Part shown: piece after piece, positions 10,238 to 33,574 of the stretch
How positions within the stretch are numbered: the first letter of the stretch is position 1
Layout: each line of letters opens with the position of its first letter
DNA from: an uncultured bacterium
GTDB taxonomy: Bacteria > Fidelibacterota > Marinisomatia > Marinisomatales > UBA1611
Length of the DNA stretch: 53,907 nucleotides
Direction: 5' to 3'
Assembly (NCBI GenBank): GCA_964404235.1
Contig: CAYOJL010000004.1
Coordinates: forward strand, 1-53,907
Notes under the pieces: generated by a model
What the model was told of the DNA's origin: nothing
The model's database searches: none
Seen by the model: only the letters and a program-made list of their open reading frames with translations
Position numbers and translations under genes: made by a program

Positions 10238-10654
10238 TTATTGGTGTGTACAATCACTTGGCACCTTTGTCCCATCTTTATGAATAGCCCATTTCCAAAT
10301 AGGAACCTTTCGTTTAAGCTCTGATATAAAATAGGTCATGGCATCTAACCCTTCTTTTCGATGCTTGGACCATATCACAACATGCAGACTTACTTCACCC
10401 ACTTTTACTTTACCAACACGATGCTTACAAAATAGATCATGGATAGAAAATTTATTAATGGTCTCTTCAGCAATTATCTTTAACTCTTTTTCAGCCATCC
10501 CATCATATTGTTCATATTCGAGATCTGTTATCTCTTTATCATCCTCTATTGATCTGACCCTTCCATTAAAAGTAAGTTCAGCTCCTTCATCTGTCCGTTC
10601 ATTATCAGCTGGAAAAGGAAATATGGGACCTTTTATAATCTCAACTTTGACCAT
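10238..10654 (-). CDS. moaE: Molybdopterin synthase catalytic subunit
   Basis: MoaE-like sequence with a C-terminal VPIWKW motif. It lies immediately after moaD. Confidence 0.9.
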   Translation of the reverse strand: MVKVEIIKGPIFPFPADNERTDEGAELTFNGRVRSIEDDKEITDLEYEQYDGMAEKELKIIAEETINKFSIHDLFCKHRVGKVKVGEVSLHVVIWSKHRKEGLDAMTYFISELKRKVPIWKWAIHKDGTKVPSDCTHQ

Positions 10655-10900
10655 TTATCCACCCTGCACTGGAGGAATTAGGACAACCTCATCACCATCT
10701 TTTAATTCTTTATCATCCTTAACATATTCCTGATTTATGGCTATACGGAGTATAACATCGTCTAATTTATTTGCTGAACTACGACGTACTATACTTTCAA
10801 ATTCAGAAGATGTTGTACCATTTTCTAATTCAAAGGTCATCTCATCAGTTCCTAAAGCATATTTAACCTGAGAAAAACATTTTAATTTGACCTTTATCAT
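10655..10900 (-). CDS. moaD: Molybdopterin synthase sulfur-carrier subunit
   Basis: 81 aa, a ubiquitin-like protein ending in GG. Confidence 0.85.
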   Translation of the reverse strand: MIKVKLKCFSQVKYALGTDEMTFELENGTTSSEFESIVRRSSANKLDDVILRIAINQEYVKDDKELKDGDEVVLIPPVQGG

Positions 10901-11871: not shown

Positions 11872-13091
11872 TTGAGTTCAGCCCAAGGTAAAAGATTAAT
11901 CTGTATAGAATCTCCTTCTAAAAGATCGTCAGAACCTGGATCGGCTCCTAATATACAATTTGCACCTAATGCAGATGTTAGCATATGTGATCCAACCTTA
12001 GTGGATGGGCTGCATAATATTTTCCCTTTCTCTATCCAAGCATTGCCAAATAGATATCGAAATTTTATTTTATCTCTTTTGAAAGATTCTTTGAGGATCC
12101 CAATTAAATATGGATCTTCAAAATGCCCCATCATCTGTCCGACCACCGGCCAAACCCATTCCATAAATCCGATGAAAGAAGAAATAGGATTACCTGGCAG
12201 ACCAAAGATCAATTTATTTTTTTTTGATCCAAAAAAGAGTGGTTTACCTGGTTTTTGAGCAACTTTCCAAAAAGATTCCTTTACTCCTAGCTCCATGAAT
12301 ACGTCTCGTACATGATCATATCTCCCCATCGACACACCGCCAGAAGAAATGATCAGATCGCAATTTTCTAAAGCCTCTGATAAGTATGAGTGCAATGCGC
12401 TTTTATCATCTTTAACCACGTCTTGCATTACAACCTTTCCACCTGCTTTTCGAACTAGCTCTGAAAACATATAAAGATTAGAGTTATATATCTTACCCTC
12501 TTTTAATTTTTTACCTGGCTCTATCAACTCATTCCCAGTTGCAAAGATAGCAACCTTTGGTTGCTTTAAAACATTAATATTACTTTGACCAAATGCAGCA
12601 CAAACACTTAACTCACTTGGAGTAATACGTGTTCCTTTTTTGATCAGAATATCTCCTTTTTTGATCTCTTCTCCTTTTAATCGAATATTCTTTCCAGGAT
12701 AAACATCAGCCATTATTTCTATCATTTCATTATCCGAATATCCACTCGTCTGTTCAACCATGATAACTGCATCAGCTCCATTAGGTATCTTCGCACCTGT
12801 CATGCATTGAATACATTCCCCGGGTTTCAATTTAAGTGAGCTTGGAGATCCTGCTGCACTTGAACCAATATTTTTCAACGATACGGGAGTCTGTTGAGAA
12901 GCTTCATGTGTGTCACTTGAACGCACAGCAAAACCATCCATGGCTGAGTTATCAAATCTTGGAGAAGGAAATGTCGCTATTACATCGTGGTCAATGATTC
13001 GGCCACTTGAATCACTTAATAAGATCCTCTCCGAATCTAATTGAAAGATATGTTCAGATATGATCCCTTTTGCCTTTTGAACAGATATCAA
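11868..13091 (-). CDS. moeA: Molybdopterin molybdenumtransferase
   Basis: FDNSAMDGFAV motif and MoeA length and domain order. Confidence 0.93.
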   Translation of the reverse strand: MISVQKAKGIISEHIFQLDSERILLSDSSGRIIDHDVIATFPSPRFDNSAMDGFAVRSSDTHEASQQTPVSLKNIGSSAAGSPSSLKLKPGECIQCMTGAKIPNGADAVIMVEQTSGYSDNEMIEIMADVYPGKNIRLKGEEIKKGDILIKKGTRITPSELSVCAAFGQSNINVLKQPKVAIFATGNELIEPGKKLKEGKIYNSNLYMFSELVRKAGGKVVMQDVVKDDKSALHSYLSEALENCDLIISSGGVSMGRYDHVRDVFMELGVKESFWKVAQKPGKPLFFGSKKNKLIFGLPGNPISSFIGFMEWVWPVVGQMMGHFEDPYLIGILKESFKRDKIKFRYLFGNAWIEKGKILCSPSTKVGSHMLTSALGANCILGADPGSDDLLEGDSIQINLLPWAELK

Positions 13092-13828
13092 AACATTTTC
13101 CCTAATAAAAATATAATCGCGATCAGAATGATAATCCCCATGATCTTTTGTATACTGTTTGGGTCATATTTGGTTGCACCAAAATATGAGCCAAGAGATC
13201 CTCCAATAATAACAGATAGAACAGAAGGCAGGATCATATCATATTCAAATCGTAAATACTGATAGCGTGCAGCTAGACCAGCAAAAGAATTTGAACAAAC
13301 AAAAATTGTACCTGCTGCTGCAGCTTCTTTCTCTGATCCTAATCCTAAGATAATTATAAGTGGAATAAGATATATTCCCCCTCCGATACCAATTGCTCCT
13401 GCAATAAATCCAAGTAATGAACCAATAGATATAATTGCGAACCATTTTTGTACTTTGGTTAATTGAACGGAAAGCACAAGATCATTCATGATATAAATTC
13501 TTATTGCAATAAGTATGAGCGTTATTAAAAGAATGATCTGAAAAATAAATTCATTTAATGTTATTGACCCTGCAAAATATGCCATGGGAATAGATGTTAT
13601 TAAAAATGGGAAGACCAGACTAGATCTACCATATCCAAACCGCCAAAAATTGACCATCCCAAAAAATGTTACTAAAAGATTGAGCGTTAACGATATAGGA
13701 GGTATGATCTGATAACTGACTCCAGAGATCGCCATAATTGCTGTGTATGAAGATCCACCACCCAGCCCTACACTCGAATAAATAAATGAAACAAAGAAAA
13801 AGGAAAATGGAATGAGATATTCCATCAA
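13088..13828 (-). CDS. TauE/SafE-family (DUF81) anion permease
   Basis: SSVGLGGGSSY and AIGIGGGIYLIPL repeat motifs, about 8 TM helices. It has 4-nt overlaps with both neighbouring Moco genes. Confidence 0.8.
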   Translation of the reverse strand: MMEYLIPFSFFFVSFIYSSVGLGGGSSYTAIMAISGVSYQIIPPISLTLNLLVTFFGMVNFWRFGYGRSSLVFPFLITSIPMAYFAGSITLNEFIFQIILLITLILIAIRIYIMNDLVLSVQLTKVQKWFAIISIGSLLGFIAGAIGIGGGIYLIPLIIILGLGSEKEAAAAGTIFVCSNSFAGLAARYQYLRFEYDMILPSVLSVIIGGSLGSYFGATKYDPNSIQKIMGIIILIAIIFLLGKMF

Positions 13829-14766
13829 TGTTTTTCACCTTTGATCATATGGAATGAATGGAATATAGTGGGGATCAACACATTTAATGCATCTTTTGCA
13901 GCACCCTTGCTTCCAGGTAAGCAGATCACAATCGTATCCTTGATCACACCAGCAGTTAACCGTGAAAGCATAGCTGTTTTTACTTTATTACGTCCATACG
14001 CATGAAGAGCTTGTTCAACACCAGGTAGTTTAGAATCGAACATTCCATCTAATACTTTTATTGTAAGGTCTCGCTCACCAAGACCTGTACCTCCAGTAGT
14101 AACGATCAATTCAACACCATCATCGATCCAATCGTTTATCAAAGGCACTAATTCCTCTGAACCATCTGGCAATACTTTTTGATGGTCTACATTACACCCT
14201 GACCCAATGAACCCTTCTATGAGTAGTGGCCCTGAAACATCCTTATTTTTTCCTGCTGACACACTATCACTTAATGTGATAACACCAACCTTTGGACGAT
14301 ATTCAGTAGAATATGTAGATCTTCCTCCTTCTTTTTCTAGGAGTTGTATATCCTTGACCACCATGGTCTTATCAATGGACTTACACATATCATAAATCGT
14401 TAGAGCAGCATTTGAAACAGCAGACAGGGCTTCCATTTCAACGCCTGTTGCTTCCTTGGTCTTTACCGTTGATCTAATAGATATATGATCCGGCATGATT
14501 GAGAATTCTATATCCACATAGGAAAGATTTAACTGGTGACACATAGGAATAAGCTCTGCTGTCTTTTTAGCCGCTTGTATACCAGCTATCTTTGCGGTAG
14601 TGAACACATTACCTTTTGGAAGCTCATCATCTTGTATTGCTGCAATGGTCTCGTGTTTCATAAAGATCATTCCTTCTGCTTTCGCGATTCGTAAGGCATT
14701 GATCTTATCTGTTACATCTACCATTCGCACATTTCCTTTTTTATCTAAATGAGAAAGATCACTCAT
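13825..14766 (-). CDS. moaC: Bifunctional MoaC (cyclic pyranopterin monophosphate synthase) / MoaB-Mog-type domain fusion
   Basis: The N-terminal half is MoaC-like (MVDVTDK...IPMCHQL...GVEMEAL). The C-terminal half is a MogA/MoaB fold (VGVITLSDS...TTGGTGLGERD). Confidence 0.9.
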   Translation of the reverse strand: MSDLSHLDKKGNVRMVDVTDKINALRIAKAEGMIFMKHETIAAIQDDELPKGNVFTTAKIAGIQAAKKTAELIPMCHQLNLSYVDIEFSIMPDHISIRSTVKTKEATGVEMEALSAVSNAALTIYDMCKSIDKTMVVKDIQLLEKEGGRSTYSTEYRPKVGVITLSDSVSAGKNKDVSGPLLIEGFIGSGCNVDHQKVLPDGSEELVPLINDWIDDGVELIVTTGGTGLGERDLTIKVLDGMFDSKLPGVEQALHAYGRNKVKTAMLSRLTAGVIKDTIVICLPGSKGAAKDALNVLIPTIFHSFHMIKGEKH

Positions 14767-14769
14767 TAA

Positions 14770-15816
14770 CTAACCTCCTATCTGGGTCATGGATTCCCTG
14801 CTTTCATTCCCTTGACGCTGAGCAGTCCAACCATCGATCATTTTTTCACCCATTGCTTTACGTATCATATCTTTGATCAGGTCATTAGAAAGGCCTTGGC
14901 GAATTGCATCTCTAATATTTGTTTCTATTTTACTGTATAAACAGTTTAATAGTTTTCCATCTGCTGTAATTCTAATTCTATTGCATTTTGCACATAGAGT
15001 GCGTGTATATGAAGGAATCACTGCTACTCGCCCTTTATATCCTTCAATTTGGAATATGTGGTGTTCAGTGCTAGAGCCAGATATCGGTCTTAATAGTTTG
15101 ATATTTGCTCTCAGGTCAGCTAAGATCCTATCAGCACTATAATATTTTCCTGTTCGCCATATCTGATGTGAATCAAATGGCATTAGTTCAATAAATCGTA
15201 CTGTAATGTCATTCGTCTTGGTCAATTCAACGAAATCAAGGATCTCATCTTCGTTAAAATCTCTCATAGCAACTACATTCACTTTAATATTCTCTATATT
15301 AGACAAGACAGCCTCATTCAATCCTTTCATAACATTCTGAAATTCATCACGACGTGTGATCTTTTTAAATTTCTCAGCATCCAAGGTATCAAGGCTGATA
15401 TTAATTCCGGTTAGACCTGCCTGTTGAAGTTGATCTATATACTTTGATAATAGAAGCCCGTTTGTGGTGATATGGACTGATTCAAAAATTGATCTTTTCG
15501 ATGAGTATTCGATCAGATCTATAATATCCTTACGTAATAGAGGCTCACCTCCTGTAAAACGGACCTTATTTACGCCTAGGTCTGACATGATCTGCAAAAT
15601 ATTTTTTATTTCAGTTGTGGATAAGAGTTGATCCTGCCCAAGAAAAGACACACCTTCTTCAGGCATGCAATAGACGCACCTTAGATTACAATGCTCATTT
15701 ACTGCTAGCCTGAGATAATTGAAAGTTCTACCGAAATGATCGGTGATGGGTGGGTCCAAGGATATACCTTGGTTGGCCGCCAATGGGTGGATATGTGTAT
15801 TATTTTCTTTTCTCAT
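14770..15816 (-). CDS. moaA: GTP 3',8-cyclase (radical SAM)
   Basis: CNLRCVYCMP radical-SAM motif, a C-terminal CAKCNRIR second cluster, and it ends in GG. Confidence 0.95.
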   Translation of the reverse strand: MRKENNTHIHPLAANQGISLDPPITDHFGRTFNYLRLAVNEHCNLRCVYCMPEEGVSFLGQDQLLSTTEIKNILQIMSDLGVNKVRFTGGEPLLRKDIIDLIEYSSKRSIFESVHITTNGLLLSKYIDQLQQAGLTGINISLDTLDAEKFKKITRRDEFQNVMKGLNEAVLSNIENIKVNVVAMRDFNEDEILDFVELTKTNDITVRFIELMPFDSHQIWRTGKYYSADRILADLRANIKLLRPISGSSTEHHIFQIEGYKGRVAVIPSYTRTLCAKCNRIRITADGKLLNCLYSKIETNIRDAIRQGLSNDLIKDMIRKAMGEKMIDGWTAQRQGNESRESMTQIGG

Positions 15817-16022: not shown

Positions 16023-17654
16023 TCATGTGATATTAGGCTTGGTCCTTAGCTTGGGTAAAAAATACAATCCGAAACAAATAACTATTTCAAATGCAATAAA
16101 AATAAAAAGATTTCTAGCAACACCATCATCAAATCCATAACTGTGTAGACCCACTTGAAGAAGATTGACACCAAACCAGGCAAGTGCAACAATAATATTA
16201 TTTAAGCCCATACCCAAAGCAAACTCTGAACGCTTTGCAATACCAGAAAGGCGCATATGGATCATCATTAATTGCCATAGTACAATAAGCAATGCTCCAT
16301 TTTCCTTTGGGTCCCAGCCCCAAAATCTTCCCCATGACTGATCGGCCCAGATACCACCCAATATCGTTCCAAATAATGTAAAGAATAATGCAACAAGCGT
16401 TATTCCATATAAATTATTAAAAATACTCTTTAGCCGTGGTTCATCCTTAGGATACCTTAATGACTGAAGTAGATACAAGTGTGCTACGCAGCCTGCCATA
16501 AGAGAAGCGCCATAACCCATCGTAATGGTCGTGACATGGGTTGCTAACCAAAAATTCGAGTTCAAGACAGCAACTAACATACCTAAAGTATCACCATCAG
16601 ATGCATAGCTAAATCCAATATAATGAAATAACGATCCAGTGACAGTCCCTATGAAGATTCCAAGACCATCTTTCCGAAAATATTCTAAAATAAGCGAGAA
16701 TATTATTATGATAAATGAAACAAAAATAATTGATTCATATAAAGTTGAGACCGGTGGTCTTCCCATGATCAACATCCTAAGAATTATTCCATATCCATGG
16801 AGTAGAGCCCCAGATACTAACAATACAAAAGAGATCCTATTTAGCCATAATGGCTGGGTCATCCAACTTAAAGCTAGAATAATAAAGGCCATTATATAAC
16901 ACCCTAAACTTATATAAAAAAGGTTGACCTTATTCATCCAAGTCTCTTTTTCCAATGTATCAATTTCAAAATCTTTATTAGGGAATGATCTAAGAGCATT
17001 CTCATAATCCATTAGCGCTATTCGCATTGTTTGTTCTTCTCCAGCCAGTCTACCTGCCAAATAGCTCTGAAGTGAACCCAATAATTTTTCTTGTGACTGA
17101 TCCATTGGCATACCAGTTAGAATAAAATCATATGGTGACAACCATTCGTCACTACTATCCTTATTCCCCGGCGGTATCAGTTTTAATGCTTTTAAATAGC
17201 TGATCTCTTCAAAACGCAAAGCATTCCTGCTAAGCTCTAAAAGCTGTTTTTCAAATACCGTTCTATTTTCATTTGGCTTTTGATCTATGCCTGCAAGCAT
17301 TGCAGATTGACCAGTGAGCCCTGGTGCAATTTCATTAAAACTATATTTATGCTCTGTGCTCCACTCAAGTAAGAGACTCGTTATTACATCTGGATTTCTT
17401 ACGTTAAAGATCTTTTGTTTTCTTCCATTATGTGGATCTAGGATCAAATTCATAAGCCAGTCAGTTGCTGTAAGGTCTAATTCTTTAATAGACCTTTTAC
17501 CATAGAATGCTAATAGGTGGTTACGGGCGAAAGTATCTAAAGGCTTTATCCGGCCTTCATCTTGAACTGGGATGTCTTTTATCTCAAATCCAGAAGCTAC
17601 CTGAACAAAGATGATAATCAATAAATAAAATATAGATCTAACGAATGAATTCAT
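16023..17654 (-). CDS. ccsA: Cytochrome c biogenesis protein CcsA/ResC (System II haem handling)
   Basis: WGRFWGWDPKENGALLIVLW tryptophan-rich haem-handling motif, with a large N-terminal periplasmic region. Confidence 0.9.
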   Translation of the reverse strand: MNSFVRSIFYLLIIIFVQVASGFEIKDIPVQDEGRIKPLDTFARNHLLAFYGKRSIKELDLTATDWLMNLILDPHNGRKQKIFNVRNPDVITSLLLEWSTEHKYSFNEIAPGLTGQSAMLAGIDQKPNENRTVFEKQLLELSRNALRFEEISYLKALKLIPPGNKDSSDEWLSPYDFILTGMPMDQSQEKLLGSLQSYLAGRLAGEEQTMRIALMDYENALRSFPNKDFEIDTLEKETWMNKVNLFYISLGCYIMAFIILALSWMTQPLWLNRISFVLLVSGALLHGYGIILRMLIMGRPPVSTLYESIIFVSFIIIIFSLILEYFRKDGLGIFIGTVTGSLFHYIGFSYASDGDTLGMLVAVLNSNFWLATHVTTITMGYGASLMAGCVAHLYLLQSLRYPKDEPRLKSIFNNLYGITLVALFFTLFGTILGGIWADQSWGRFWGWDPKENGALLIVLWQLMMIHMRLSGIAKRSEFALGMGLNNIIVALAWFGVNLLQVGLHSYGFDDGVARNLFIFIAFEIVICFGLYFLPKLRTKPNIT

Positions 17655-18781
17655 TTAGATCTCTTTGAAGTTCTTTTAAGCATTTTAGGCAGATTGAATA
17701 AAAGATGTATCAATAAACCAATGCTCATTATAATACTTGAAATATATGGGAACATTCTACCATAATTCTTTACCGTTGCTAAGACGGTGGTCTCCTTATC
17801 TAGCCCTTCTACAAAGGACGCTTGGTAAAAGGTATATCCTTTATGCCTAAGTGGTTCATTCATTTGGATAAGGACTCTACGCGGGATCTTATCTTCAATC
17901 AAATTGACCTCTGAGCTGAAACTTTTTGCAACATTTGTACCAGGGTGCATAACCTTTTTAAAATCTAAAAGCTCAATAGCAAATGGTAGATAGGTTCTTT
18001 TTCTTCGAAACTCAGCAAAAAATAATTCACCACCTATCTCAAATGTATCTGGGACTCTTTGTCCTAAGAATGCACCATAAATACCATCAGTTTCTTTACC
18101 GGTTCCAGCTAATTTAAAAATTAATCCTGGACGATTTTGAGTATTCTCTTTATCTGGCTGTTTTGGAATAATTACAAAATCATCTAGAAATCCCTTATAG
18201 ATCGAATCAGCTGGAGATATCCTACTCTCAATTCTCACATTCTTTATATGGTCTATAATATCAATTTGAATCCCAAGTTTATCATATTTTATGCTACTCC
18301 CTTCACCCAATAATGGAGCATCAAAAATAGTATATTCCAAACTATCCTCAAGAGAAGTATTTACAAAGGCAAGCTCCATATCATGGTAATCATCTACATG
18401 ATCAGAGCTTTCTCCCTCTTTAATGACCATATTCCCTTCTGCACTGAACTTTGCCGTAATACCACCTCCTATCAACAGCAGTAAACCGCCTACATGAACA
18501 ATGATTATACCCAATTTTTTCATTTTCCATAGATTCTTATTAAATAGGCTTGATGCTAGATTGATCGTCATAATAATAATTGTGATCCTACCACCAGGAA
18601 GAGGTAAAAAACCGGCAAAGAGAAAATAATAAGATGAAAAATACTTTACTTGTGAAGCATACAGTCCTACATCTTTTTGAGCGATCGTGCCAAAAAATAC
18701 AAGTACGATCAACCATACAACCGTGTATGAGAATACTTTTGGACTACTAATGAACTTTATCAATTGTTTTATATCACTCAT
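17651..18781 (-). CDS. ccsB: Cytochrome c biogenesis protein ResB/CcsB
   Basis: ResB layout: N-terminal TM helices, a large loop, then MNEPLRHKGYTFYQASF and a C-terminal TM helix. It has a 4-nt overlap with ccsA. Confidence 0.85.
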   Translation of the reverse strand: MSDIKQLIKFISSPKVFSYTVVWLIVLVFFGTIAQKDVGLYASQVKYFSSYYFLFAGFLPLPGGRITIIIMTINLASSLFNKNLWKMKKLGIIIVHVGGLLLLIGGGITAKFSAEGNMVIKEGESSDHVDDYHDMELAFVNTSLEDSLEYTIFDAPLLGEGSSIKYDKLGIQIDIIDHIKNVRIESRISPADSIYKGFLDDFVIIPKQPDKENTQNRPGLIFKLAGTGKETDGIYGAFLGQRVPDTFEIGGELFFAEFRRKRTYLPFAIELLDFKKVMHPGTNVAKSFSSEVNLIEDKIPRRVLIQMNEPLRHKGYTFYQASFVEGLDKETTVLATVKNYGRMFPYISSIIMSIGLLIHLLFNLPKMLKRTSKRSK

Positions 18782-19329
18782 TCCGGTATATATATAGATT
18801 CACAGAATGATCTGAATTCAGATTCGATCTCACTTATCCCACCACCATTGATCGAAAGCTTCACGAAAACCGTTCTATCTTTAAGTTGAAAGATCGAAGC
18901 AAGTATCGCATTCTCTTTCTGATACTCATTGATCAATTTGAAATATTGATAATCACCTAACTTTCCTCGGCTAGTTAAAGAAAGTTTTTGAATTTCAATT
19001 AAAGATAATGGTTCCAATTCAATCTGGCCAAGCCAACGGTTCACATTTGCCTCTACACCACCACTTATTCCAGAAAAAGTTGTGATCGATAGGTCACCTT
19101 TCCCTTTTGTGGTTGGAACACTAAAACTAGCTAACCTCATAGAATGCCCCTGTACTTCGGTCCACATTTCAGGTGTTTCCCATTTTAAGATAAACTCATT
19201 CTTATCCTTTATAGTATTATCCAAGGGTTGCTCTTGTTTCGGTAAACGGTATGTACGAATATGATCTCCTGAATCGCAGGACATAATAAATAGCGTGTAA
19301 GATAAGAGAATGATTATGATCTTGTACAA
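18778..19329 (-). CDS. Lipoprotein of unknown function
   Basis: The signal peptide ends in a lipobox (LFIMSC). There is a 4-nt overlap with ccsB. I recognise no motif. Confidence 0.55.
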   Translation of the reverse strand: MYKIIIILLSYTLFIMSCDSGDHIRTYRLPKQEQPLDNTIKDKNEFILKWETPEMWTEVQGHSMRLASFSVPTTKGKGDLSITTFSGISGGVEANVNRWLGQIELEPLSLIEIQKLSLTSRGKLGDYQYFKLINEYQKENAILASIFQLKDRTVFVKLSINGGGISEIESEFRSFCESIYIPE

Positions 19330-19427: not shown

Positions 19428-22265
19428 TTATTTTAAATAGAATTGATCTTCTTGAGGTGTCAATGGTCTTCCCATCCATAACGGTCGACGCAATCCATTT
19501 GGATGAGTTTCCCTCTTTTTTGCCCATTCATTCCACTTTTTAAAATGCTCGAAGGATCTATTAGTATCAACAAAAATATCACCATATCCTTCATTTGGAC
19601 CAGGTTTTGAGATACTGACCTTTTGTAACCAACAATGAGCTCCGGATATTGGGTCAGGGTTGGCTGCGTGTGTGATATTTTGATGAACACCACCATCTCG
19701 CCACCATATTCTATTCGTGTCCGGATCATTCGTCTGCCAAGATTCAACTCCTTTTATGGTACTCATTTTCCATTTTCCATCGCCTAAGTTCTTTATATCA
19801 ACAGTATTGGTCATAAATCGATTCCCTTCATCCTGCTGTCTTCTCCATCTACCAATATGATGAGAGCATGCAACTACACCAGGCTTGATGGCTTCGGTCA
19901 CCCATACTTTATCAACAAACCACCCTATCTCTGTTTTGACCTTAAGAAGGTCACCGTTATCTACGCCTATTCTTGCAGCATCCTTCGTATGGATCCATAT
20001 TGGATTACGATGAGCGATCTCAGTGAGCCACTTTGCATTGGCTGAGCGAGAATGGATATGGGTTGGTAATCTAAAATTAGGTAATAGAATGCACTCATTT
20101 TTTTCTTTATCCATTTCATCTAGGTGCACATGGCTTTTGATCCTATATCCAGGTGTGGCATGTTCTGGATATCCAAAATCAGACATGGTCTGTGAAAATA
20201 TTTCCTGCCTCTTAGATGGTGTTGGAAATCCCTTATATTTCTCACCATTTACTTCAATACCTACAATATTGTCACCTTTTATAACCTGTCCATTTGGCCT
20301 TACAGTTGTTTCTAGATCATCTATAGGATCTTCATTATTTTTATATACATTATCATCAACAAGAAAGGCTCCATACTTACGCATGTATTCTAATGGTGTC
20401 ATATCTTCCTTTCCTGCTACATCAGTTAAACCTTCCGTATGCTCAAAGATATATTGATAATATTCATCTATATTGATCTTCTCATTATCTCGATAAGGAC
20501 TCATAAAATGTTTTCGTATGCCCAGATCCTCATTTTTATCGATCTGCCAAGATAATTCGATCCAAAATTCATCTTCCTCCCAAACTTCACCAGGGTTAAC
20601 CTCATAAGTGAATTTCACTTCTTTACCATCCCTGCGAGCTTTTTCACGCAATACAGGTTGTCTAAAAGCGATCCAAATACCAGCCTGAGTTTCATAAGAA
20701 TTTATATCATGACGCTCTGAGGCATGCCCCATAGGTAATACGTAATCCGCGAAAAAAGCCGTTTCATTCCAAGTTGGTGTAAGTGCAATATGACATCCCA
20801 CCTTTTCCATATCAGAAAGCATTTCAATCCAAGTAAATCCATCTGGATAGGTCCACACTGGATTAAAAACACGAGTGAAATAAACATCTATTGAACCTCT
20901 ATTATCTTTTAAAAGATGAGGAAGGATCTGACTCATCTCATAGTGTGCTAAGGTGTACTCTTTTGGCCAATTCAATTCATTCCAAGCATCTGGACCGGGA
21001 GGTGAATCAAAAAATTCTGGATGAAATTTATTCCAAGCACTAGGAGATGTTCCTCCCTCTGTACCAACTGAACCAGTTAGTACATTCAACAAATGCAAAG
21101 TACGTGATACTTGCCATCCACCTAGATTACCAATTGATGGTCCTCTCCATACATGTGTAGATAATTTTGAGCCTGCCTTACCGATCAACTTTGCTACACG
21201 AATAATCTGATCTACCTCTATTTGAGCTTCTTTAGCAGCAAATTCTGGTGTATACATTTTCCATTCTTCAGCCAATCGTTTTATGAATTGATCGAATTCA
21301 ACTGGATCGGAAGGATGAAGGTTCTTTAAATAGTCATCCCAGTTTACCCAGTTTTCCAAATAATCCCTGTCATATAATTCCTCATCCAAAATGATCTTCG
21401 CGATCGCCATGTACACAGCGGGTTCACTACCAGGATATGTAGGCATCCACTCATCTGCCATAGAAGCAGTATTTGAAAGTCGAGGATCCATGACAATAAG
21501 CTTTGCACCTTTCATCATCCCTTCCATTATCCGTTGTGCATGGGGATTGAAATAATGGCCTGTTTCAAGATGCGATGATGCTAAAAGGATCACTTCTGCA
21601 TTGGTATGATCTGGACTTGGTCGATCGTATTTATGCCAGAGTGCATATCCGGTTCGTGCACCGGCAGAACAAATATTAGTGTGGGAATTATGCCCATCAA
21701 CTCCCCAAGCTTTTAAAACTCGTTCAGCATAACCTTCATGTCCTGGTCTTCCCACATGATATACTACACCATCTTTTCTTTTACGGATAGATGATGCTAT
21801 CTTTTCAGATATTTCTTCTAATGCTTTATCCCAGCTAATGCGTTCCCATTTACCTTCACCTCTCTTGCCAACACGTTTAAGAGGATACAATATCCGTTCT
21901 GTATCGTTGATCTGATTAATAGTGGCAGGGCCCTTCGCACAATTACGTCCCCTACTTCCGGGATGATGAGGATTCCCTTCAAATTTACGTAGTTTATCTG
22001 TCTCTTTATCAATATAGGCCAATAATCCACATGCGGATTCACAATTAAAACAAGTAGTAGGAACAATAGAATAGTGGCGATCTTTTTTTTCAGGCCAAGC
22101 TAAAGGATCTAATTCCACAAAGTCATTCCACTCGCTTGGATCAGGATATTTATAGAGCTCTCTTGGACCACTCATAGCGAATTCTTCAGACCAATCAGGT
22201 CGGTCCGATATTTTAGGTATCAATCCTAATGATTCGGAGAATGTTTCTATCCAAGATCTCTTCAT
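19428..22265 (-). CDS. Molybdopterin (bis-MGD, DMSO-reductase family) oxidoreductase catalytic subunit with no Tat signal
   Basis: CFNCESACG-x28-C FeS0 motif (C-x2-C-x3-C-x29-C), about 945 aa, and HTNICSAG as a possible Cys Mo-ligand. The N-terminus MKRSWIETFSE lacks a twin-arginine motif. ATG is at 22265 and an alternative TTG at 22271. Either start abuts or overlaps the upstream stop. Confidence 0.9.
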   Translation of the reverse strand: MKRSWIETFSESLGLIPKISDRPDWSEEFAMSGPRELYKYPDPSEWNDFVELDPLAWPEKKDRHYSIVPTTCFNCESACGLLAYIDKETDKLRKFEGNPHHPGSRGRNCAKGPATINQINDTERILYPLKRVGKRGEGKWERISWDKALEEISEKIASSIRKRKDGVVYHVGRPGHEGYAERVLKAWGVDGHNSHTNICSAGARTGYALWHKYDRPSPDHTNAEVILLASSHLETGHYFNPHAQRIMEGMMKGAKLIVMDPRLSNTASMADEWMPTYPGSEPAVYMAIAKIILDEELYDRDYLENWVNWDDYLKNLHPSDPVEFDQFIKRLAEEWKMYTPEFAAKEAQIEVDQIIRVAKLIGKAGSKLSTHVWRGPSIGNLGGWQVSRTLHLLNVLTGSVGTEGGTSPSAWNKFHPEFFDSPPGPDAWNELNWPKEYTLAHYEMSQILPHLLKDNRGSIDVYFTRVFNPVWTYPDGFTWIEMLSDMEKVGCHIALTPTWNETAFFADYVLPMGHASERHDINSYETQAGIWIAFRQPVLREKARRDGKEVKFTYEVNPGEVWEEDEFWIELSWQIDKNEDLGIRKHFMSPYRDNEKINIDEYYQYIFEHTEGLTDVAGKEDMTPLEYMRKYGAFLVDDNVYKNNEDPIDDLETTVRPNGQVIKGDNIVGIEVNGEKYKGFPTPSKRQEIFSQTMSDFGYPEHATPGYRIKSHVHLDEMDKEKNECILLPNFRLPTHIHSRSANAKWLTEIAHRNPIWIHTKDAARIGVDNGDLLKVKTEIGWFVDKVWVTEAIKPGVVACSHHIGRWRRQQDEGNRFMTNTVDIKNLGDGKWKMSTIKGVESWQTNDPDTNRIWWRDGGVHQNITHAANPDPISGAHCWLQKVSISKPGPNEGYGDIFVDTNRSFEHFKKWNEWAKKRETHPNGLRRPLWMGRPLTPQEDQFYLK

Positions 22266-22267
22266 GA

Positions 22268-23875
22268 TCAACTTAAAGGTATCATTTGTGGTACTCTTAT
22301 ACGCACAAACTCTGTTAAAAAAATTCCGATCAGTGCCATAACACCTGCTACGAGTTCATGGCCTGTACTTACAGTTAAGATCAAAAAAGGCAGTAGACTT
22401 CCTAGAACAACACCAGGCCAAAAATATCTCGAATAATAGCCATTTGTCATCATCTGTATTGCTTTTTTACTGTCTGGAGTATCGTGAGGTATGAATACCT
22501 CTTTTAGAATAATAAATACATTTAATAAAATGGAGAAATATAGTATGCTTCTCATTATGCTCGTTGACCCTGTGTCGATCATGATCATAATTACCGATCC
22601 TGCAATAATTGCATGAACCAACATATGTATTGCACCTATCCATGGCGTTTGCCAGAGATCTCGTCCCCTTGCTTGATTAAAAAGGAATGCTGTATAGATC
22701 GCTCCGAGAACAGCAAAGACTGCCCCGATACTCCATGCCCATTTAAGTCCAAGATCAAAATAATGATCGATCAGTAGTAAAACTACCATTCCTCCAAAGA
22801 TCGTAATGATGTATGCACCTCGCACCAACCATGATCTCCATTGAGGGCGCAATAGAACATACAAGAATCGGTCTGGCCTATCTAGATCTTTGACCAATAA
22901 TGCCCCTGTTAGGCCCATAAAGATCAAAGATGTATATAACCCACTTATTTCAACGGTACGATCTAAAGGGCCATTCATGAACTGATAGATGGCCATCATT
23001 AAGAATGTTCCCGTTGCAATTGCTTTTGTCCATACATAGGATGTGACCTCCCAACCCCAAAGCACACCCTTACTTGGAGAATCATATACTCTACGCGCTT
23101 TATTTTCATCCACATCTTGCTGTATCTCTTTTGCAACTTGATCGATAGACCGTTGGTCAATAGGGTTCCCACTACGAGCAGAGTTTTCCATTGCGAGTTG
23201 TATTAATAAATTCTCTGTATCTGATTCATTTACTCGGTTATCAGCATATTTTGCATAATGCCCTACTCCCTTTGACTGCTCTGACCAAACATATTCCCAA
23301 TCTGCCTCGGTTTGATTTGGGTCTAACATTTCATTTGTACCATTTATATAGTAAAGATTAGGCTGTGTCATTTTCTCTGGCTTTCTGGCCATAACATTTT
23401 CGTTGGCTAATAGATCAGAGATCTTTGAATTATTATCATCCATATCTCCAGATATGATCGCCTCTACTGGACAGACTATTACACATGCTGGTTCATATCC
23501 ACCATCAAGGCGATGGGCACAGTAATTGCACTTTGCGGCCGTATTTGTATCTGGATCAATATAAAGTGCATCATATGGACAGGCTTGCATACATGATTTG
23601 CATCCAATACATCGGTCATTATCAAAATCTACAATACCATCAGAACGTGTGAACAGGGCAGTAGTCGGACATATCTCTACACATGGTGCATTTGCACAAT
23701 GATTACAACGATGGACCGAAAATTCTCTGCTACTATTTGGGAATATGCCCTTTTCAATATATTTTACATGGGTACGGTTCACACCAATAGGTACATCATG
23801 CTCACTTTTGCAAGCAACGGTGCAGGCATGACAGCCAATACACAAACGATTATCTATAATGAATCCGTAATTCAT
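22268..23875 (-). CDS. Fusion protein: 4x[4Fe-4S] ferredoxin-type (PsrB/DmsB/SoeB-like) domain plus NrfD/PsrC-like 8-TM quinone-interacting membrane domain
   Basis: Four Cys clusters: CIGCHACTVAC, CNHCANAPCVEICP, CIGCKSCMQACP and CNYCAH...CVIVCP. An acidic linker and 8 hydrophobic helices follow, beginning WGWEVTSYVW. The start is placed at MNYGFIIDNRLCIGC (23875), because the longer ORF to 23953 would leave 2 nt before divergent mobA. Confidence 0.85.
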   Translation of the reverse strand: MNYGFIIDNRLCIGCHACTVACKSEHDVPIGVNRTHVKYIEKGIFPNSSREFSVHRCNHCANAPCVEICPTTALFTRSDGIVDFDNDRCIGCKSCMQACPYDALYIDPDTNTAAKCNYCAHRLDGGYEPACVIVCPVEAIISGDMDDNNSKISDLLANENVMARKPEKMTQPNLYYINGTNEMLDPNQTEADWEYVWSEQSKGVGHYAKYADNRVNESDTENLLIQLAMENSARSGNPIDQRSIDQVAKEIQQDVDENKARRVYDSPSKGVLWGWEVTSYVWTKAIATGTFLMMAIYQFMNGPLDRTVEISGLYTSLIFMGLTGALLVKDLDRPDRFLYVLLRPQWRSWLVRGAYIITIFGGMVVLLLIDHYFDLGLKWAWSIGAVFAVLGAIYTAFLFNQARGRDLWQTPWIGAIHMLVHAIIAGSVIMIMIDTGSTSIMRSILYFSILLNVFIILKEVFIPHDTPDSKKAIQMMTNGYYSRYFWPGVVLGSLLPFLILTVSTGHELVAGVMALIGIFLTEFVRIRVPQMIPLS

Positions 23876-23955
23876 AAAATCAGGGTCAAAGAAAGCCTTT
23901 GAAAATAATAAATCAAATGATATGTAATTAATCTTTCTAGTATGGAAATTCAAAT

Positions 23956-24534
23956 ATGATACCTGCTACAGCTTTTATATTGATTGGCGGAGTTAGTCAA
24001 CGCTTTGGCACACCCAAATGGCAAGCAATTATTGATGGGGAAACCGTTCTTGATCGTATATGGAACTCATGTGATAAGTTTCAAGAAAGATATATTATTG
24101 GTAAAAATCAACATAGAGACAAAAAAAAACCTTTCCTAATGGATGAGCTAGATATAGAAGCACCGATCAATGGTCTATATACTGCTCTTGTTCATACCAC
24201 TAGTGATTGGATATTATTGCTTTCTTGTGATCTTCCATTAATGGATCAAGATACTATTGCTCATTTATGGTCTTATGTAAAATCAGGAAAAGAGATCATT
24301 GTACCAGAGATAAATGGAGAATTACAACCTACTTGTGCACTCTATAATAAAAGACTTAAAGACCCCGTCTTTGAACAAATAAACAATAACAGATTGAGTT
24401 TAAAAGAATTAATCAGTAAAGTGGATTATCATTCGATCGATCTAAATGAACGATCTGATTATTTTCTAAATATGAATACAAAAAGTGATATGAGCAGAGC
24501 AGAAAAAATATTAAGCTCAAAAAGTTCCAAGTAA
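23956..24534 (+). CDS. mobA: Molybdenum cofactor guanylyltransferase
   Basis: The N-terminal motif LIGGVSQRFGTPKW is typical of MobA-like NTP transferases, and the length is about 190 aa. Confidence 0.85.
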   Translation: MIPATAFILIGGVSQRFGTPKWQAIIDGETVLDRIWNSCDKFQERYIIGKNQHRDKKKPFLMDELDIEAPINGLYTALVHTTSDWILLLSCDLPLMDQDTIAHLWSYVKSGKEIIVPEINGELQPTCALYNKRLKDPVFEQINNNRLSLKELISKVDYHSIDLNERSDYFLNMNTKSDMSRAEKILSSKSSK

Positions 24535-24549
24535 ATCATTATCATAATT

Positions 24550-25071
24550 ATGTTAAATGCAGTTATAGATAAACTGAAAGAATTTTCAAAAGAAGACTTT
24601 CCAGTTCCGGAAGTGTCATCCTATTTACTTGATCTGAATATCGATCAGAAAGAACTGAAAAAATATTTATTACGTGAAAATGATCACTATACCAGAAATC
24701 TAATTCATAGAGATAGTGATTTTGAAATAATGATTATTTGCTGGCCACCAAATACTGCGGCACCGATCCATGGACATGAAGGTGAAAAATGTTGGGCTAG
24801 AGTTCAAGATGGAAATCTTCAAATATGCAATTATGAAGAGATCTCTTCCAAGCCACTAAAATTAAATATGGTACAAGAATTATCATGTGCACCAGGATTT
24901 TTAGATGGCCCAGCTGATATACATTCTGTAGAAAATATAACTGAAGAATTTGCAACCAGCCTGCATGTATATGCCAAACCATATGATGCATGCGATATAT
25001 ATGATATTGAAAAAGGAACGATCGATCGAATAAAACTAAGCTATCATAGTATTGATGGCATTCTATGTTGA
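24550..25071 (+). CDS. Cysteine dioxygenase type I (cupin), Arg-type
   Basis: It aligns without gaps to mammalian CDO blocks: YTRNL, IMIICW, PIHGH, EKCW, DIHSVEN and SLHVYAKPYDAC. Confidence 0.85.
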   Translation: MLNAVIDKLKEFSKEDFPVPEVSSYLLDLNIDQKELKKYLLRENDHYTRNLIHRDSDFEIMIICWPPNTAAPIHGHEGEKCWARVQDGNLQICNYEEISSKPLKLNMVQELSCAPGFLDGPADIHSVENITEEFATSLHVYAKPYDACDIYDIEKGTIDRIKLSYHSIDGILC

Positions 25072-28323: not shown

Positions 28324-29490
28324 CTATTTAGTTACTTCCATAAATACTCTTTTAAAATTTCCCCCAAGTATTTTTTTCACATCCCTTACTGAATATCCTC
28401 TTTCAATCAATTTTTCAGTTATAATGGGCATCTTTCCAATATGCTCTATACCTTTTGGTAATGCTTCAACACCATCCCAGTCGGCTCCGATCCCTACATG
28501 ATCAACACCAATAAGATCTTTAATATAATCAATATGATCAATTACATCATTTAAGTCTGGAACGATCTCATCATAATATGAACGCAATAATTCACTTTTC
28601 TTATAATAACCGATCGTTGAATTCTCCCCATAAAGGTCATCGACTGAATCCAATAGAGCACTATGTAATTCTTTTAGACCCTGCTCTTTTTTGAAAAAAG
28701 TAGAATCTATGAAACCAGGATAAAAGTTGACAAAAACAACGCCACCATTGTCTTTTATAGCGAAGAGTTGTTCATCTTTAAGATTTCTAAATTGTGGACA
28801 TAAACTATAGACAGACGAGTGTGAGGCTATGATCGGTTTTGTTGTAATCGATAATATATCTAATACAGTTTGCTCACCCGCATGCGATATGTCTATCATG
28901 ATCCCAAGCTTATTGCATCTACGTATCACATCTTTACCAAATTCAGTTAAACCAATAAACTCTAATGAATCTTTATTCTTAGTCTCATCTTTTGCTGAAG
29001 TAGCCCATTCATTTGAATTATTCCAGGTCACACCCAGATATCGCATGCCTCTTTTATACAAAGCTTCTAATTTTGCCAAATCATTTTCTATCATGTGCCC
29101 GCCTTCAACTCCGATCATGCATGATAAGATATTTTTCTGATCATAATAGACAATATCCTGATAATTGAATGGGATCGCCCATTGATCAGGCACCCTTGAA
29201 CAAAGATATTCAAGCTGATCGATCATTACATTGGCTTGTTGATAGTATTGACCTTTGAATTCTGTGGGATCCACATAGATGGAAAAGACCTGAAGATCAA
29301 CTCCTCCTTTTTTAAACTTTGGAAGATCAGAGTGGCTTTCAGGAAGATCGGTGAGGATATCTCGTCCAGTAAGCGAACGCAGTAGAACATCATTATGAGT
29401 ATCTGCAACAAATGCTGATTCATGAATTTGGCTGGTATCTGATTCACAAGATATGAAAAGAATGATAAAGATCAGTAAAATATTCTTCAT
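28324..29490 (-). CDS. Membrane dipeptidase (peptidase M19), predicted lipoprotein
   Basis: Lipobox FISC, and ADTHNDVL plus later His/Asp motifs of the renal-dipeptidase family. There is a 4-nt overlap with kmo. Confidence 0.88.
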   Translation of the reverse strand: MKNILLIFIILFISCESDTSQIHESAFVADTHNDVLLRSLTGRDILTDLPESHSDLPKFKKGGVDLQVFSIYVDPTEFKGQYYQQANVMIDQLEYLCSRVPDQWAIPFNYQDIVYYDQKNILSCMIGVEGGHMIENDLAKLEALYKRGMRYLGVTWNNSNEWATSAKDETKNKDSLEFIGLTEFGKDVIRRCNKLGIMIDISHAGEQTVLDILSITTKPIIASHSSVYSLCPQFRNLKDEQLFAIKDNGGVVFVNFYPGFIDSTFFKKEQGLKELHSALLDSVDDLYGENSTIGYYKKSELLRSYYDEIVPDLNDVIDHIDYIKDLIGVDHVGIGADWDGVEALPKGIEHIGKMPIITEKLIERGYSVRDVKKILGGNFKRVFMEVTK

Positions 29491-30815
29491 TGGATTGGAG
29501 TTAATTGGCTTAAAATATTTTCATATAATTTAGACTCTGTGATATCTCCTGACAAATAGTCATCCATCATCTTAAGTTGAAGTAAGCCCCTTTTATAAAC
29601 TTCCGTATAGGGCATAGTATGGAATGAGACCATGGAATATCTAGGAATAAATCTGTCTCTGAATTGTGTTTCTAAACTGAATTCTAACTCTCTTCTATTC
29701 TTATAGACCGGGTCATTGACAGAATCTCTCATTTCCAGATAATTCTCCAATGCCATATCTGCTATAGCATGACCATTTGGAACATGATTCTTTGAAAATT
29801 CAGAAAATATCATCCCCCAATCACCATGAAATTCTTCTATCAAGTTATTGATCACCGTACAATCTTGGAATGAGGCATTCATCCCTTGTCCAAAAAATGG
29901 AACGATCGCATGGGCAGCATCTCCAAAAATAACCAACTTGTCCTGGTAATTCCATTTATCACAATAAACCGTAGCCAGAGAACCAACAGGATTTTGTTGA
30001 TATTCCTCCACTAGATCTGGAATCAGATCAATTGTATCTGAAAAATAGGAATTAAAAAGATCATATATCTGATCATCGGATGTGATACTTGAAAAACTGG
30101 TATTACCATCCATTGGGAAGAATAATGTACAAGTAAAAGAACGATCCATATTTGGCAAAGCAATGAGCATGAAATCTCCTCTCGGCCATATATGCAATGC
30201 CTCAGGATCCATCTTGAAGTCCCCATCAGCAGTGGCAGGGATTGAAAGTTCCTTATAGCCATGCCCTAATGGTTTCTTTTGAAAATTAATCGAAGACCAT
30301 TCATTAATGCAATTTCGTATACATGAAGAGGATCCGTCAGACCCCATAACTCTATTGAAAGAAACCCTTTTATTATTCTTAAAAATGAGTTCTGAATTAT
30401 TAAGATCAATATTTTTAAGGGTATGGTCAAAATAGATCTTAACATTTCCAGATTCTTCAATATGGTCCATCAAACTCATATTAAGATATCCACGAGATAC
30501 CGAATAGATGACCTCATCTTCTGTCTGCCCATATGATTGTAGATGTGTCTTACCATCCAGATCATGGATCATGCGGCCTTTCATAGGCAACAATTGAGAT
30601 TGAATTTCTCTAAAAATACCTATGTCCTTAAGCGCTTCTATTCCTCTTTTTGATAATGCTAGGTTGATAGAACGTCCTGCTGATTGTTGTATAACTCTCA
30701 TATCTGGACGTCTTTCATAAATATCTACTCTATACCCATGATCTGATAGGTATTGTGCCATAACCGGACCTGCTAGCCCTGCACCAATTAATGAAATATG
30801 TTCCTTATCGACCAA
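29487..30815 (-). CDS. kmo: Kynurenine 3-monooxygenase (FAD)
   Basis: ISLIGAGLAGPV...YERR dinucleotide fold, FGDAAHAIVPFFGQGMN, and KMO length. The start codon is TTG. Confidence 0.9.
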   Translation of the reverse strand: MVDKEHISLIGAGLAGPVMAQYLSDHGYRVDIYERRPDMRVIQQSAGRSINLALSKRGIEALKDIGIFREIQSQLLPMKGRMIHDLDGKTHLQSYGQTEDEVIYSVSRGYLNMSLMDHIEESGNVKIYFDHTLKNIDLNNSELIFKNNKRVSFNRVMGSDGSSSCIRNCINEWSSINFQKKPLGHGYKELSIPATADGDFKMDPEALHIWPRGDFMLIALPNMDRSFTCTLFFPMDGNTSFSSITSDDQIYDLFNSYFSDTIDLIPDLVEEYQQNPVGSLATVYCDKWNYQDKLVIFGDAAHAIVPFFGQGMNASFQDCTVINNLIEEFHGDWGMIFSEFSKNHVPNGHAIADMALENYLEMRDSVNDPVYKNRRELEFSLETQFRDRFIPRYSMVSFHTMPYTEVYKRGLLQLKMMDDYLSGDITESKLYENILSQLTPIQ

Positions 30816-32046
30816 TTGCTTTCTTTAATATTTCAACAAATTCAAATACTTCAGTAAATGTATTAAATAAGGGATGAGGTGCCACACGGATGACATCAGG
30901 ATTTCGCCAATCACAGACCACACCTTGTTCTGAAAGATGATCAAATACATCTTTTCCACCTGGCACCACGATAGAAAGTTGACAACCTCTAGCTTCAGGT
31001 GTAATGACATCCACGTTTGTAAGATATTCTTTGATCAAATATTCCATATAAGATGATAGCTCTTTACCTTTATCACGTATAGCATTCATTCCAACTGTAT
31101 CATAGATCTCCATAGAAGCTAATAAGGGTGCCATTCCCATAACTGGTGCATTACTGACCTGCCAGCCTTCAGAAGTTAAAATTGGATCAAAGACCGATGG
31201 CATCTGAAATCTTGAATCTTTATTGTGACCCCACCAACCAAGAAACCTAGGTCCATCCCAATCATGATGACGTTCATGGATAAAAACACCCGATGGACTT
31301 CCTGGACCAGCACAAAGATACTTATATGTACACCAAGCAGAAAAATCTATATCCCAATCATGCAACCTTAAAGGTAGATTACCAACACTATGAGCTAGAT
31401 TGAATCCAACGATGGCTCCTTTTGAGCGACCAACCTTTGTTATCTCTTCCATATCAAATGCTTGACCGGTATAATAATTCACGCCACCTAAATAGATGAG
31501 GGACAGTTCATCCCCATGATCATGAATAGAAGAAAGAATATCCTCATGACGTAAGATCTTTTCATCTTTCCTTGGTTCAAGTTCAATCAAGGCCAACTCT
31601 GGATCATATCCATGGAATCTTATCTGACTTTGTATGGCATAATGATCTGAAGGGAAGGCATCTTTTTCGATCATGATCTTATATTTTTTTTCATTAGGCT
31701 GATAAAATGAGACCAATAAGAAATGAATATTGACTGTCAGAGCATTCATTACAACTACCTCTGGAATCAAAGCGCCAACTAATTTTGCGGTAGACCCTGC
31801 AAGCCTTTCATGAAATGCTATCCATCGGGTTTCCTGACCAAGGACACCCTTTTCGGCCCAAATGGATAACTCTTTTGTTATGTGAGAAGGAACTGTTTTC
31901 GGTTGAAGTCCTAGTGAATTACCACAGAAATAGATCAGATCTTTACCACTACTATCTTTTGGATAATTGAATTGATCACGGTATTCACTTAGTCCATCCT
32001 GTTGGTCTAGAGAATTTGCAAATGATCTTGAATCCTCGTAGTTCAT
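30805..32046 (-). CDS. kynU: Kynureninase (PLP)
   Basis: YFCGNSLGLQP...CTYKYLCAGPGS, typical of kynureninase. Confidence 0.92.
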   Translation of the reverse strand: MNYEDSRSFANSLDQQDGLSEYRDQFNYPKDSSGKDLIYFCGNSLGLQPKTVPSHITKELSIWAEKGVLGQETRWIAFHERLAGSTAKLVGALIPEVVVMNALTVNIHFLLVSFYQPNEKKYKIMIEKDAFPSDHYAIQSQIRFHGYDPELALIELEPRKDEKILRHEDILSSIHDHGDELSLIYLGGVNYYTGQAFDMEEITKVGRSKGAIVGFNLAHSVGNLPLRLHDWDIDFSAWCTYKYLCAGPGSPSGVFIHERHHDWDGPRFLGWWGHNKDSRFQMPSVFDPILTSEGWQVSNAPVMGMAPLLASMEIYDTVGMNAIRDKGKELSSYMEYLIKEYLTNVDVITPEARGCQLSIVVPGGKDVFDHLSEQGVVCDWRNPDVIRVAPHPLFNTFTEVFEFVEILKKAIGR

Positions 32047-33050: not shown

Positions 33051-33056
33051 AACAGA

Positions 33057-33572: not shown

Positions 33573-33574
33573 CT

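Follow-up and report, generated by a model that had tools for sequence, protein, structure and literature searches.

Which side of the cytoplasmic membrane a molybdoenzyme faces, and which substrate it would meet there, is the question raised by two adjoining genes on contig CAYOJL010000004.1 (GenBank assembly GCA_964404235.1), which belongs to a SAR406 (Marinimicrobia) genome. The whole stretch of DNA analyzed, hereafter the window, comprises positions 1 to 53,907 of this contig. One gene of the pair encodes a fusion protein (BC) of an iron–sulfur (FeS) subunit with an NrfD/PsrC-like membrane subunit, the other a catalytic subunit (A) predicted to bind a molybdenum bis(pyranopterin guanine dinucleotide) (Mo-bisPGD) cofactor. 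The evidence points to a cytoplasm-facing enzyme of the family described as PSRLC3 in green sulfur bacteria and as psrBC-psrA in Marine Group A and, with moderate confidence, to a sulfite:quinone oxidoreductase like SoeABC as its most likely function.

Both genes lie on the minus strand, with BC upstream of A and the two abutting. The open reading frame (ORF) of BC spans 22268..23953; its start was assigned to the ATG at 23875, which yields a protein of 535 aa beginning with MNYGF (22268..23875); the same start and length are found in ∼120 database homologues, which also contain both domains. Within the 26 codons 5′ of this ATG, neither a leader for the twin-arginine translocation (Tat) pathway nor a Sec-like leader is encoded. 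For A, translation may begin either at TTG 22271 (947-aa ORF) or at ATG 22265 (MKRSW; 945 aa, 19428..22265), and the gene cannot be extended further upstream because the BC stop codon, TGA, overlaps the TTG codon. Promoters and terminators predicted by a scan of the window were at chance level (22 versus 21 expected, and 2 versus 3.2, respectively). The two-gene format reported in the initial annotation, including the domains and cysteine motifs described in the following and the lack of a Tat leader, was thus reproduced by the ORF list, Pfam, and motif inspection.

In BC, Pfam recognized both Fer4_11 (1.7e-22) and NrfD (2.5e-15) in one polypeptide, at E-values far past chance. The N-terminal part (residues 1–175; 23351..23875, minus strand) is a PsrB/TtrB-like FeS domain without signal peptide, as judged from NCBIfam, its PDB match, and the positions of its 16 cysteines. 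The latter form four groups of the CxxCxxCxxxC type, that is, four predicted [4Fe-4S] clusters, as in the four-cluster ferredoxin subunits of Psr/Phs/Ttr/Arr/Soe-type complexes. The NCBIfam profile TtrB matches the domain at 5.6e-53 from profile position 43 on, leaving uncovered the start of the profile, which we take to be the site of the Tat leader. The nearest PDB match is PsrB from Thermus (2vpw_B; 2.6e-47). The FeS domain is followed by an acidic linker of ∼95 aa (residues 176–270; 23066..23350, minus strand; 18 D+E versus 10 K+R), which is kept within Marinimicrobia and where AlphaFold2 (AF2) placed helices of low confidence. The remainder (22271..23065, minus strand) is the NrfD/PsrC-like domain, for which AF2 predicted eight transmembrane helices at residues 275–531 with a predicted local distance difference test (pLDDT) score of ∼90. 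The model superposes on Thermus PsrC (2vpw_C; Foldseek template modeling [TM] score 0.78, probability 1.00), which corresponds to the haem-free, 8-helix architecture of NrfD/PsrC subunits. A phmmer search of this domain against the PDB retrieved nothing meaningful; the relation came from the fold comparison. Pfam, AF2, and the cysteine count thus agree with the earlier description of an FeS domain lacking a signal peptide and fused via an acidic linker to an 8-helix NrfD domain. In the AF2 model of BC, the pLDDT of the FeS domain is below 30, and the model is hence uninformative on how the domains dock.

The catalytic subunit contains Molybdop_Fe4S4, Molybdopterin, and Molydop_binding (Pfam; 1.2e-17, 8.1e-16, and 7.6e-11, respectively) and thus the domains of the Mo/W-bisPGD (DMSO reductase) superfamily. 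Its FS0 [4Fe-4S] motif, C-x2-C-x3-C-x29-C (CFNCESAC-x29-C; 21930..22052, minus strand), starts at residue 74 of the 947-aa ORF, and the four cysteines are invariant in our alignment A4. Cys201 (HTNICSAG; codon 21669..21671, minus strand), which is near-invariant across the family, aligns with the cysteine of HSSVC in ArrA (6cz7), presumably the Mo ligand of that enzyme; Cys201 is therefore predicted to supply the protein ligand to the metal typical of this superfamily. The AF2 model of A (pLDDT 85) has ArrA, PsrA, and acetylene hydratase as its top PDB matches (E down to 2e-42), at sequence identities of 18–19% and, for ArrA and PsrA, TM scores of 0.73–0.76. A scores under the cutoff of every NCBIfam equivalog, including that for PhsA (204.9 bits versus a cutoff of 694).

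No export signal was detected for either protein. The 73 residues of A preceding FS0 contain neither an RR motif nor a hydrophobic stretch (maximum 12-residue hydropathy 0.73, versus 1.8–2.0 in Tat-bearing relatives), and a Tat-like leader was recognized in 0 of the 120 close homologues; these calls are based on simple motif and hydropathy criteria, which differ from those of TatP and SignalP, and the resulting orientation is a prediction. An assembly artifact masking an RR leader, which the initial annotation had named as a possible refutation, was considered and rejected because the Tat-less state is common to all 120 homologues and to loci from many phyla. The charges in the membrane domain point the same way: the N- and C-termini of the NrfD domain and the loops rich in K/R are predicted to share the FeS (cytoplasmic) side, with 13 K+R there versus 3 on the opposite side. 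For 58 aligned fused proteins of diverse phyla, the mean was 13.4 versus 1.6, and the positive-inside rule assigned the FeS domain to the cytoplasm in every case (smallest difference in a single protein, 6). In contrast, the bias is reversed or lacking in three Tat-type relatives with NrfD as a separate subunit (2 versus 7, 3 versus 14, and 4 versus 5). Given the lack of export signals and the K+R bias of the NrfD loops, the prediction that the FeS domain faces the cytoplasm together with the Mo subunit, and that the NrfD module is inverted relative to PsrC, is well supported. The cytoplasm-facing arrangement proposed in the initial annotation therefore stands.

This predicted topology sets the pair apart from its Psr/Phs/Ttr/Arr-type counterparts. 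PsrABC of Thermus thermophilus (2vpw), PhsABC, TtrABC, and ArrABC share the three-module design, but they are Tat-exported, periplasmic, and composed of separate subunits, whereas the window pair is Tat-less, inverted in its charge bias, and fused in B and C; in addition, A is ∼180 aa longer than their catalytic subunits and only 18–19% identical to them. SoeA, in contrast, is of similar size (∼950 aa). SoeABC of Allochromatium vinosum, Aquifex aeolicus, and Ruegeria pomeroyi likewise combines a Mo-bisPGD subunit, a four-cluster FeS subunit, and an NrfD subunit, and Calisto & Pereira predicted it to face the cytoplasmic (N) side, with its NrfD subunit, SoeC, inverted (PMC8076601). The peripheral modules of the window enzyme are predicted to lie on that same side, and the enzyme probably works like SoeABC.

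Species-representative genomes were scanned with an alignment of four sequences, which revealed more than 551 loci with relatives of A. The best 80 of these are 56–87% identical over the full length. Their hosts are Marinimicrobia, Marine Group II (MGII) archaea (Poseidoniales), Saprospiraceae/Lewinellaceae, Flavobacteriaceae, Chlorobium, Planctomycetota, Acidobacteriota, Chloroflexota, and others, with isolate genomes represented by Flavilitoribacter nigricans, Lutibacter aestuarii, Gaetbulibacter sp., and Chlorobium sp. N1; plasmid records added Natrinema, Halomarina, Thermomicrobium roseum, and Rhodococcus jostii RHA1. In 64 of the 80 loci, A is preceded by a fused BC ORF. Among the other 16, 13 have too little upstream sequence, and three (L005, L023, and L069) contain A but no BC within 8 kb upstream, which means that the pairing is not absolute. 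Another gene intervenes between BC and A in 3 of the 64 loci, in two of them one for a protein resembling sulfide:quinone oxidoreductase (SQR; L028 and L043); the gap between BC and A in L037 is ∼2.3 kb. The fusion also occurs in Rhodococcus RHA1 (pRHL3, RHA1_RS43835/43840) and in Tat-less relatives that are only ∼40% identical. The survey suggested in the initial annotation thus located the fused format in Marinimicrobia, MGII, Bacteroidota, Chlorobium, Acidobacteriota, Chloroflexota, haloarchaea, and Rhodococcus. In marine metagenomes, the family is very abundant, with single 90%-identity clusters of ∼2,600 and ∼2,500 member sequences.

Deviations from the common format were also observed. 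The BC fusions of MGII (L006, L007, L009-L014, and L065) are only ∼470–490 aa long, with ∼6 predicted transmembrane helices in the NrfD part instead of eight, and retain a C-terminal PQMEPLL tail. A Tat-less relative of 1220 aa (P0125 in L087) has lost cysteines in its FS0 region (TAAGGHPNACG) and is still encoded behind a fused BC gene.

In a neighbor-joining (NJ) tree, the fused Tat-less proteins and three Tat-bearing ones (P0128 in L085, P0150, and P0162) are united in a single clade, apart from PsrA/PhsA-like proteins (200 of 200 bootstrap replicates). Within it, Marinimicrobia and MGII group together in all 200 replicates and the core of at least 56% identity in 147, whereas the branching order in the larger clade was not resolved. 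Both the tree and full-length identities to A of the window (58–59% for Chlorobium and 65–70% for Poseidoniales) indicate that it is closely related to its counterparts in green sulfur bacteria and MGII. The Tat-bearing sister group shares the B-C-A gene order but differs in having an RRxFLK leader on A, separate B (∼212 aa) and C (∼287 aa) subunits, and NrfD charges distributed as in periplasm-facing enzymes. B and C are separate in all Tat-bearing relatives inspected; in most of these, genes for a TorD/NarJ-like chaperone and a Fer4 protein of 360 aa follow downstream. The layout of this uncharacterized, Tat-exported family is B, NrfD, A (RRxFLK), TorD/NarJ-like chaperone, and 360-aa poly-ferredoxin, the last two being absent from L089; in L085, a cytochrome c gene and a ParA/Mrp-like gene are located upstream. 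A more distant member is encoded on pAZKH of Azoarcus KH32C (L081), and Sulfurovum mangrovi (L082), which is outside the tree, has the same gene layout, its A gene seemingly split in two pieces.

The initial annotation knew of no described B-C gene fusion, which is incorrect. Wright et al (2013; ISME J; PMC3906813), who cite Frigaard & Bryant (2008), described a psrBC fusion upstream of psrA on the Marine Group A (SAR406) fosmid FPPP_13C3; with the fusion on record in 2008 and 2013, the claim of novelty falls. In the same study, PsrA was predicted to be cytoplasmic because it lacked a TAT signal, genes for molybdenum cofactor (Moco) synthesis and the pentose-phosphate pathway were noted nearby, and the fusion was also reported for MGII fosmids, Haladaptatus, and Caldilinea and, with reference to Frigaard & Bryant (2008) as cited there, for green sulfur bacteria. 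The fused two-gene architecture is already described and widespread (hundreds of genomes), its function having been inferred. By description, the window matches the FPPP_13C3 operon in phylum, psrBC-psrA order, lack of a TAT signal, and the presence of Moco genes and genes for Rpe, RpiB, and transketolase, and the closest relatives of both are in MGII archaea. It is the interpretation that differs: the FPPP_13C3 operon was read as encoding a polysulfide reductase/sulfide oxidase (PMC3906813), whereas the context of the window points to sulfite oxidation.

The latter is in line with how PSRLC3 of green sulfur bacteria is treated in the passages citing it, namely, as an inferred sulfite-oxidizing system (PMC6338057 and PMC9324843). 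As represented there, PSRLC3 (Frigaard & Bryant, 2008; Gregersen et al, 2011) also consists of a Tat-less PsrA-like and a fused PsrBC-like protein and would oxidize sulfite in the cytoplasm. The Chlorobium homologues identified here carry the same fusion directly upstream of A, and their loci were equated with PSRLC3 by this architecture. The proposed origin of sulfite is different, however: reverse Dsr in green sulfur bacteria versus cysteine dioxygenase or organosulfur catabolism in the window genome.

What favors the SoeABC-like sulfite:quinone reading is gene context, both in related loci and in the window. Neighbors were evaluated for 50 loci with at least 4 kb of upstream and at least 3 kb of downstream sequence (flanks of up to 8 kb on each side), and representative neighbor genes were verified by Pfam. 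One or more sulfur genes were found near 29 of the 50 loci, most often genes for persulfide dioxygenase (PDO)-like proteins (metallo-beta-lactamase/rhodanese; 19 loci), SulP permeases (15), and SQR-like flavoproteins (10), followed by Sulf_transp (6), DsrE2 (5), and TusA (5). In Neomarinimicrobiota locus L004, where A is 75% identical to that of the window, the order is TusA-DsrE2-rhodanese/PDO-BC-A-DASS-Usp, and two MGII loci (L006 and L014) contain rhodanese/PDO-BC-A. The fused genes of Gaetbulibacter are framed by two Sulf_transp genes upstream and SulP-SulP-PDO-SQR-like downstream, while a Myxococcota contig encodes a sigma-54 regulator, PDO-rhodanese, and two Sulf_transp proteins ahead of BC and A. 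Chlorobium has DsrE2-rhodanese-TusA downstream of A, and Rhodococcus RHA1 has DsrE-like-TusA-BC-A-Mrp together with metallo-beta-lactamase-fold hydrolases, ArsR/SmtB regulators, and thioredoxin. In the latter (pRHL3; L083), the gene directly after A encodes an Mrp/NBP35 FeS carrier, which may be a dedicated cluster-insertion factor.

Arsenic, selenium, and nitrogen genes, by comparison, were not recurrent neighbors in the inspected loci, whereas sulfur genes recur across phyla. This bears on the idea that the enzyme is a cytoplasmic oxidoreductase with a non-sulfur substrate, be it arsenite/arsenate, selenate, nitrate, or an organic compound (as in acetylene hydratase or transhydroxylase). ArrA and acetylene hydratase being top sequence or structure matches, in a family that has no curated assignment, would speak for it; at an identity of just 18–19% to these proteins and in such surroundings, we consider it very improbable.

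In the window itself, the divergent neighbor of BC encodes MobA (23956..24534, plus strand; Pfam/NCBIfam), which serves Mo-bisPGD maturation and is also present in L001 and L002. It is followed by a gene for a type I cysteine dioxygenase (CDO; 24550..25071, plus strand; Pfam CDO_I, 1.4e-19). The protein is closer to mammalian CDO, its best PDB matches (1.4e-18), than to that of Bacillus (1.2e-9), and the aligned motifs include YTRNL with the substrate arginine, H-x-H...C, H, and H-x-Y, thus the three histidines and the Cys/Tyr pair. The closest relative, L001, has a CDO copy that is 76% identical and occupies the same place beside MobA. Cysteine sulfinate gives rise to sulfite after transamination, and the CDO of the window is a likely cytoplasmic source of sulfite via this intermediate. 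On the other side of the pair, and co-directional with it, lies a full Moco biosynthesis set (MoaA, MoaC-MogA, MoeA, MoeB/ThiF, MoaD, and MoaE; 10238..15816, minus strand), in which a TauE/SafE-family permease is embedded (13088..13828, minus strand). At its end, accompanied by a Usp gene, is a DASS-type (Na_sulph_symp) anion transporter (8795..10210, minus strand; Pfam, 1.7e-52), a candidate carrier of sulfate or sulfite. In L004, a DASS gene whose product is 59% identical to the window copy forms, with Usp, a pair directly downstream of A. The pentose-phosphate genes of the neighborhood encode RpiB, transketolase, and Rpe.

Taken together, these neighbors would fit a pathway in which sulfite, formed from cysteine by the adjacent CDO in the window genome, by PDO in relatives, or by Dsr in green sulfur bacteria, is oxidized to sulfate in the cytoplasm at a Cys-ligated Mo-bisPGD site. 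Electrons would pass from Mo via FS0 and the four clusters and reach quinone at a cytoplasm-facing site, and sulfate might leave the cell through DASS, SulP, or TauE-type carriers. The proposal of the initial annotation that the enzyme resembles SoeABC thus remains plausible; its cytoplasmic orientation agrees with the predictions made here, and the gene context (PDO, SulP/DASS, TusA/DsrE2, and CDO) strengthens it.

The actual substrate may also be another cytoplasmic sulfur compound provided by PDO and rhodanese, such as thiosulfate or a protein-bound thiosulfonate delivered via TusA/DsrE2, which the enzyme would oxidize or cleave, rather than free sulfite. PDO-rhodanese fusions, Sulf_transp (YeeE-like) proteins, and TusA/DsrE2 are indeed common as neighbors. 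The window, however, contains CDO, TauE, and DASS instead; neither rhodanese nor TusA nor PDO is encoded in its 54 kb, and SulP and DASS indicate sulfate as the product. We know of no precedent for a Mo enzyme acting on thiosulfate or thiosulfonate in this way, and we regard this alternative as improbable.

Several observations weigh against sulfite oxidation of the SoeABC kind. The canonical SoeABC is encoded by three separate genes in the order A-B-C, whereas the window has a BC fusion ahead of A; because the enzyme thus lacks the three separate subunits SoeA, SoeB, and SoeC, the family is filed here under PSRLC3/Marine Group A psrBC-psrA. The best profile matches of A are PhsA, DmsA, ArrA, and TtrA, all far under their cutoffs, and the IMG labels for family proteins name neither SoeA nor PsrA but COGs only. 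In the context set, 21 of the 50 loci had none of the sulfur genes searched for, and the neighbor frequencies are raw counts with no genome background beside them. Finally, the “psr” genes of Saanich Inlet Marinimicrobia have been read as polysulfide reductase (Hawley, 2017; PMC5688066). In sequence searches, tblastn against plasmids returned only family members, two Tat-type relatives, and matches at the level of PhsA, but no SoeA above that level; NCBIfam contains no SoeA model; and a search started from a 39% identical relative (P0124) retrieved the same family only, under generic names.

The main competing explanation is the one implied by the psrABC label, a cytoplasmic enzyme that reduces polysulfide, sulfur, or thiosulfate or that runs in reverse as a sulfide/polysulfide oxidase. 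By profile and structure, the nearest characterized families of A are PhsA, PsrA, and ArrA, and those of the other domains PsrB and PsrC; rhodanese, TusA, and DsrE2 in the neighborhood are carriers of sulfane sulfur. Yet the PhsA score of 205 falls well below 694, a Tat leader is lacking, and a cytoplasmic active site is predicted. Flavobacteriaceae, Saprospiraceae, MGII, and Rhodococcus are mainly aerobic heterotrophs, and the recurrent neighbors include PDO, which produces sulfite in an O2-dependent reaction, and sulfate-type permeases. Although both Wright et al (2013; PMC3906813) and Hawley (2017) adopted the reductase reading, one review has judged the psr label unsafe (PMC8359478). Weakened by the orientation, the presumed aerobic lifestyle of the hosts, and the PDO and sulfate-permease context, the reductase reading appears unlikely, and cytoplasmic sulfite oxidation is retained as the favored function.

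Further genes of the window are mentioned for completeness. Between A and the Moco genes (16023..19329, minus strand) are genes for System II cytochrome c biogenesis (ResB-like and CcsB-like) and a 183-aa lipoprotein-like ORF without family match, none of which is conserved beside related loci. A complete-looking kynurenine pathway cluster (29487..37718, minus strand) encodes tryptophan 2,3-dioxygenase, a short-chain dehydrogenase/reductase, aldehyde dehydrogenase, RidA, 3-hydroxyanthranilate dioxygenase, an ACMSD-like amidohydrolase, kynureninase, and a KMO-like flavoprotein.

An enzyme that is abundant in the ocean and is routinely called polysulfide reductase in models of SAR406 thus probably carries the wrong label. 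We see about an even chance that the “psrABC” of SAR406 and its relatives in MGII and Bacteroidota are cytoplasmic sulfite:quinone oxidoreductases instead of polysulfide reductases, providing mostly aerobic marine heterotrophs with respiratory electrons from sulfite that would originate from CDO, PDO, or organosulfur catabolism. Cultured carriers, that is, Flavilitoribacter nigricans DSM 23189, Lutibacter aestuarii, Gaetbulibacter sp. S0825, Chlorobium sp. N1, Rhodococcus jostii RHA1, Thermomicrobium roseum, and Natrinema species, make the function testable. If this notion is correct, the part assigned to SAR406 in the “cryptic sulfur cycle” of oxygen-minimum zones would have to be revised, and the strict linkage of Tat loss and B-C fusion to an inverted NrfD charge bias would be a clear case from nature of a respiratory module having been flipped across the membrane. 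A cytoplasmic sulfite dehydrogenase would change ecological models of SAR406 and, likewise, the view of what becomes of sulfite in heterotrophs possessing both SQR and PDO.

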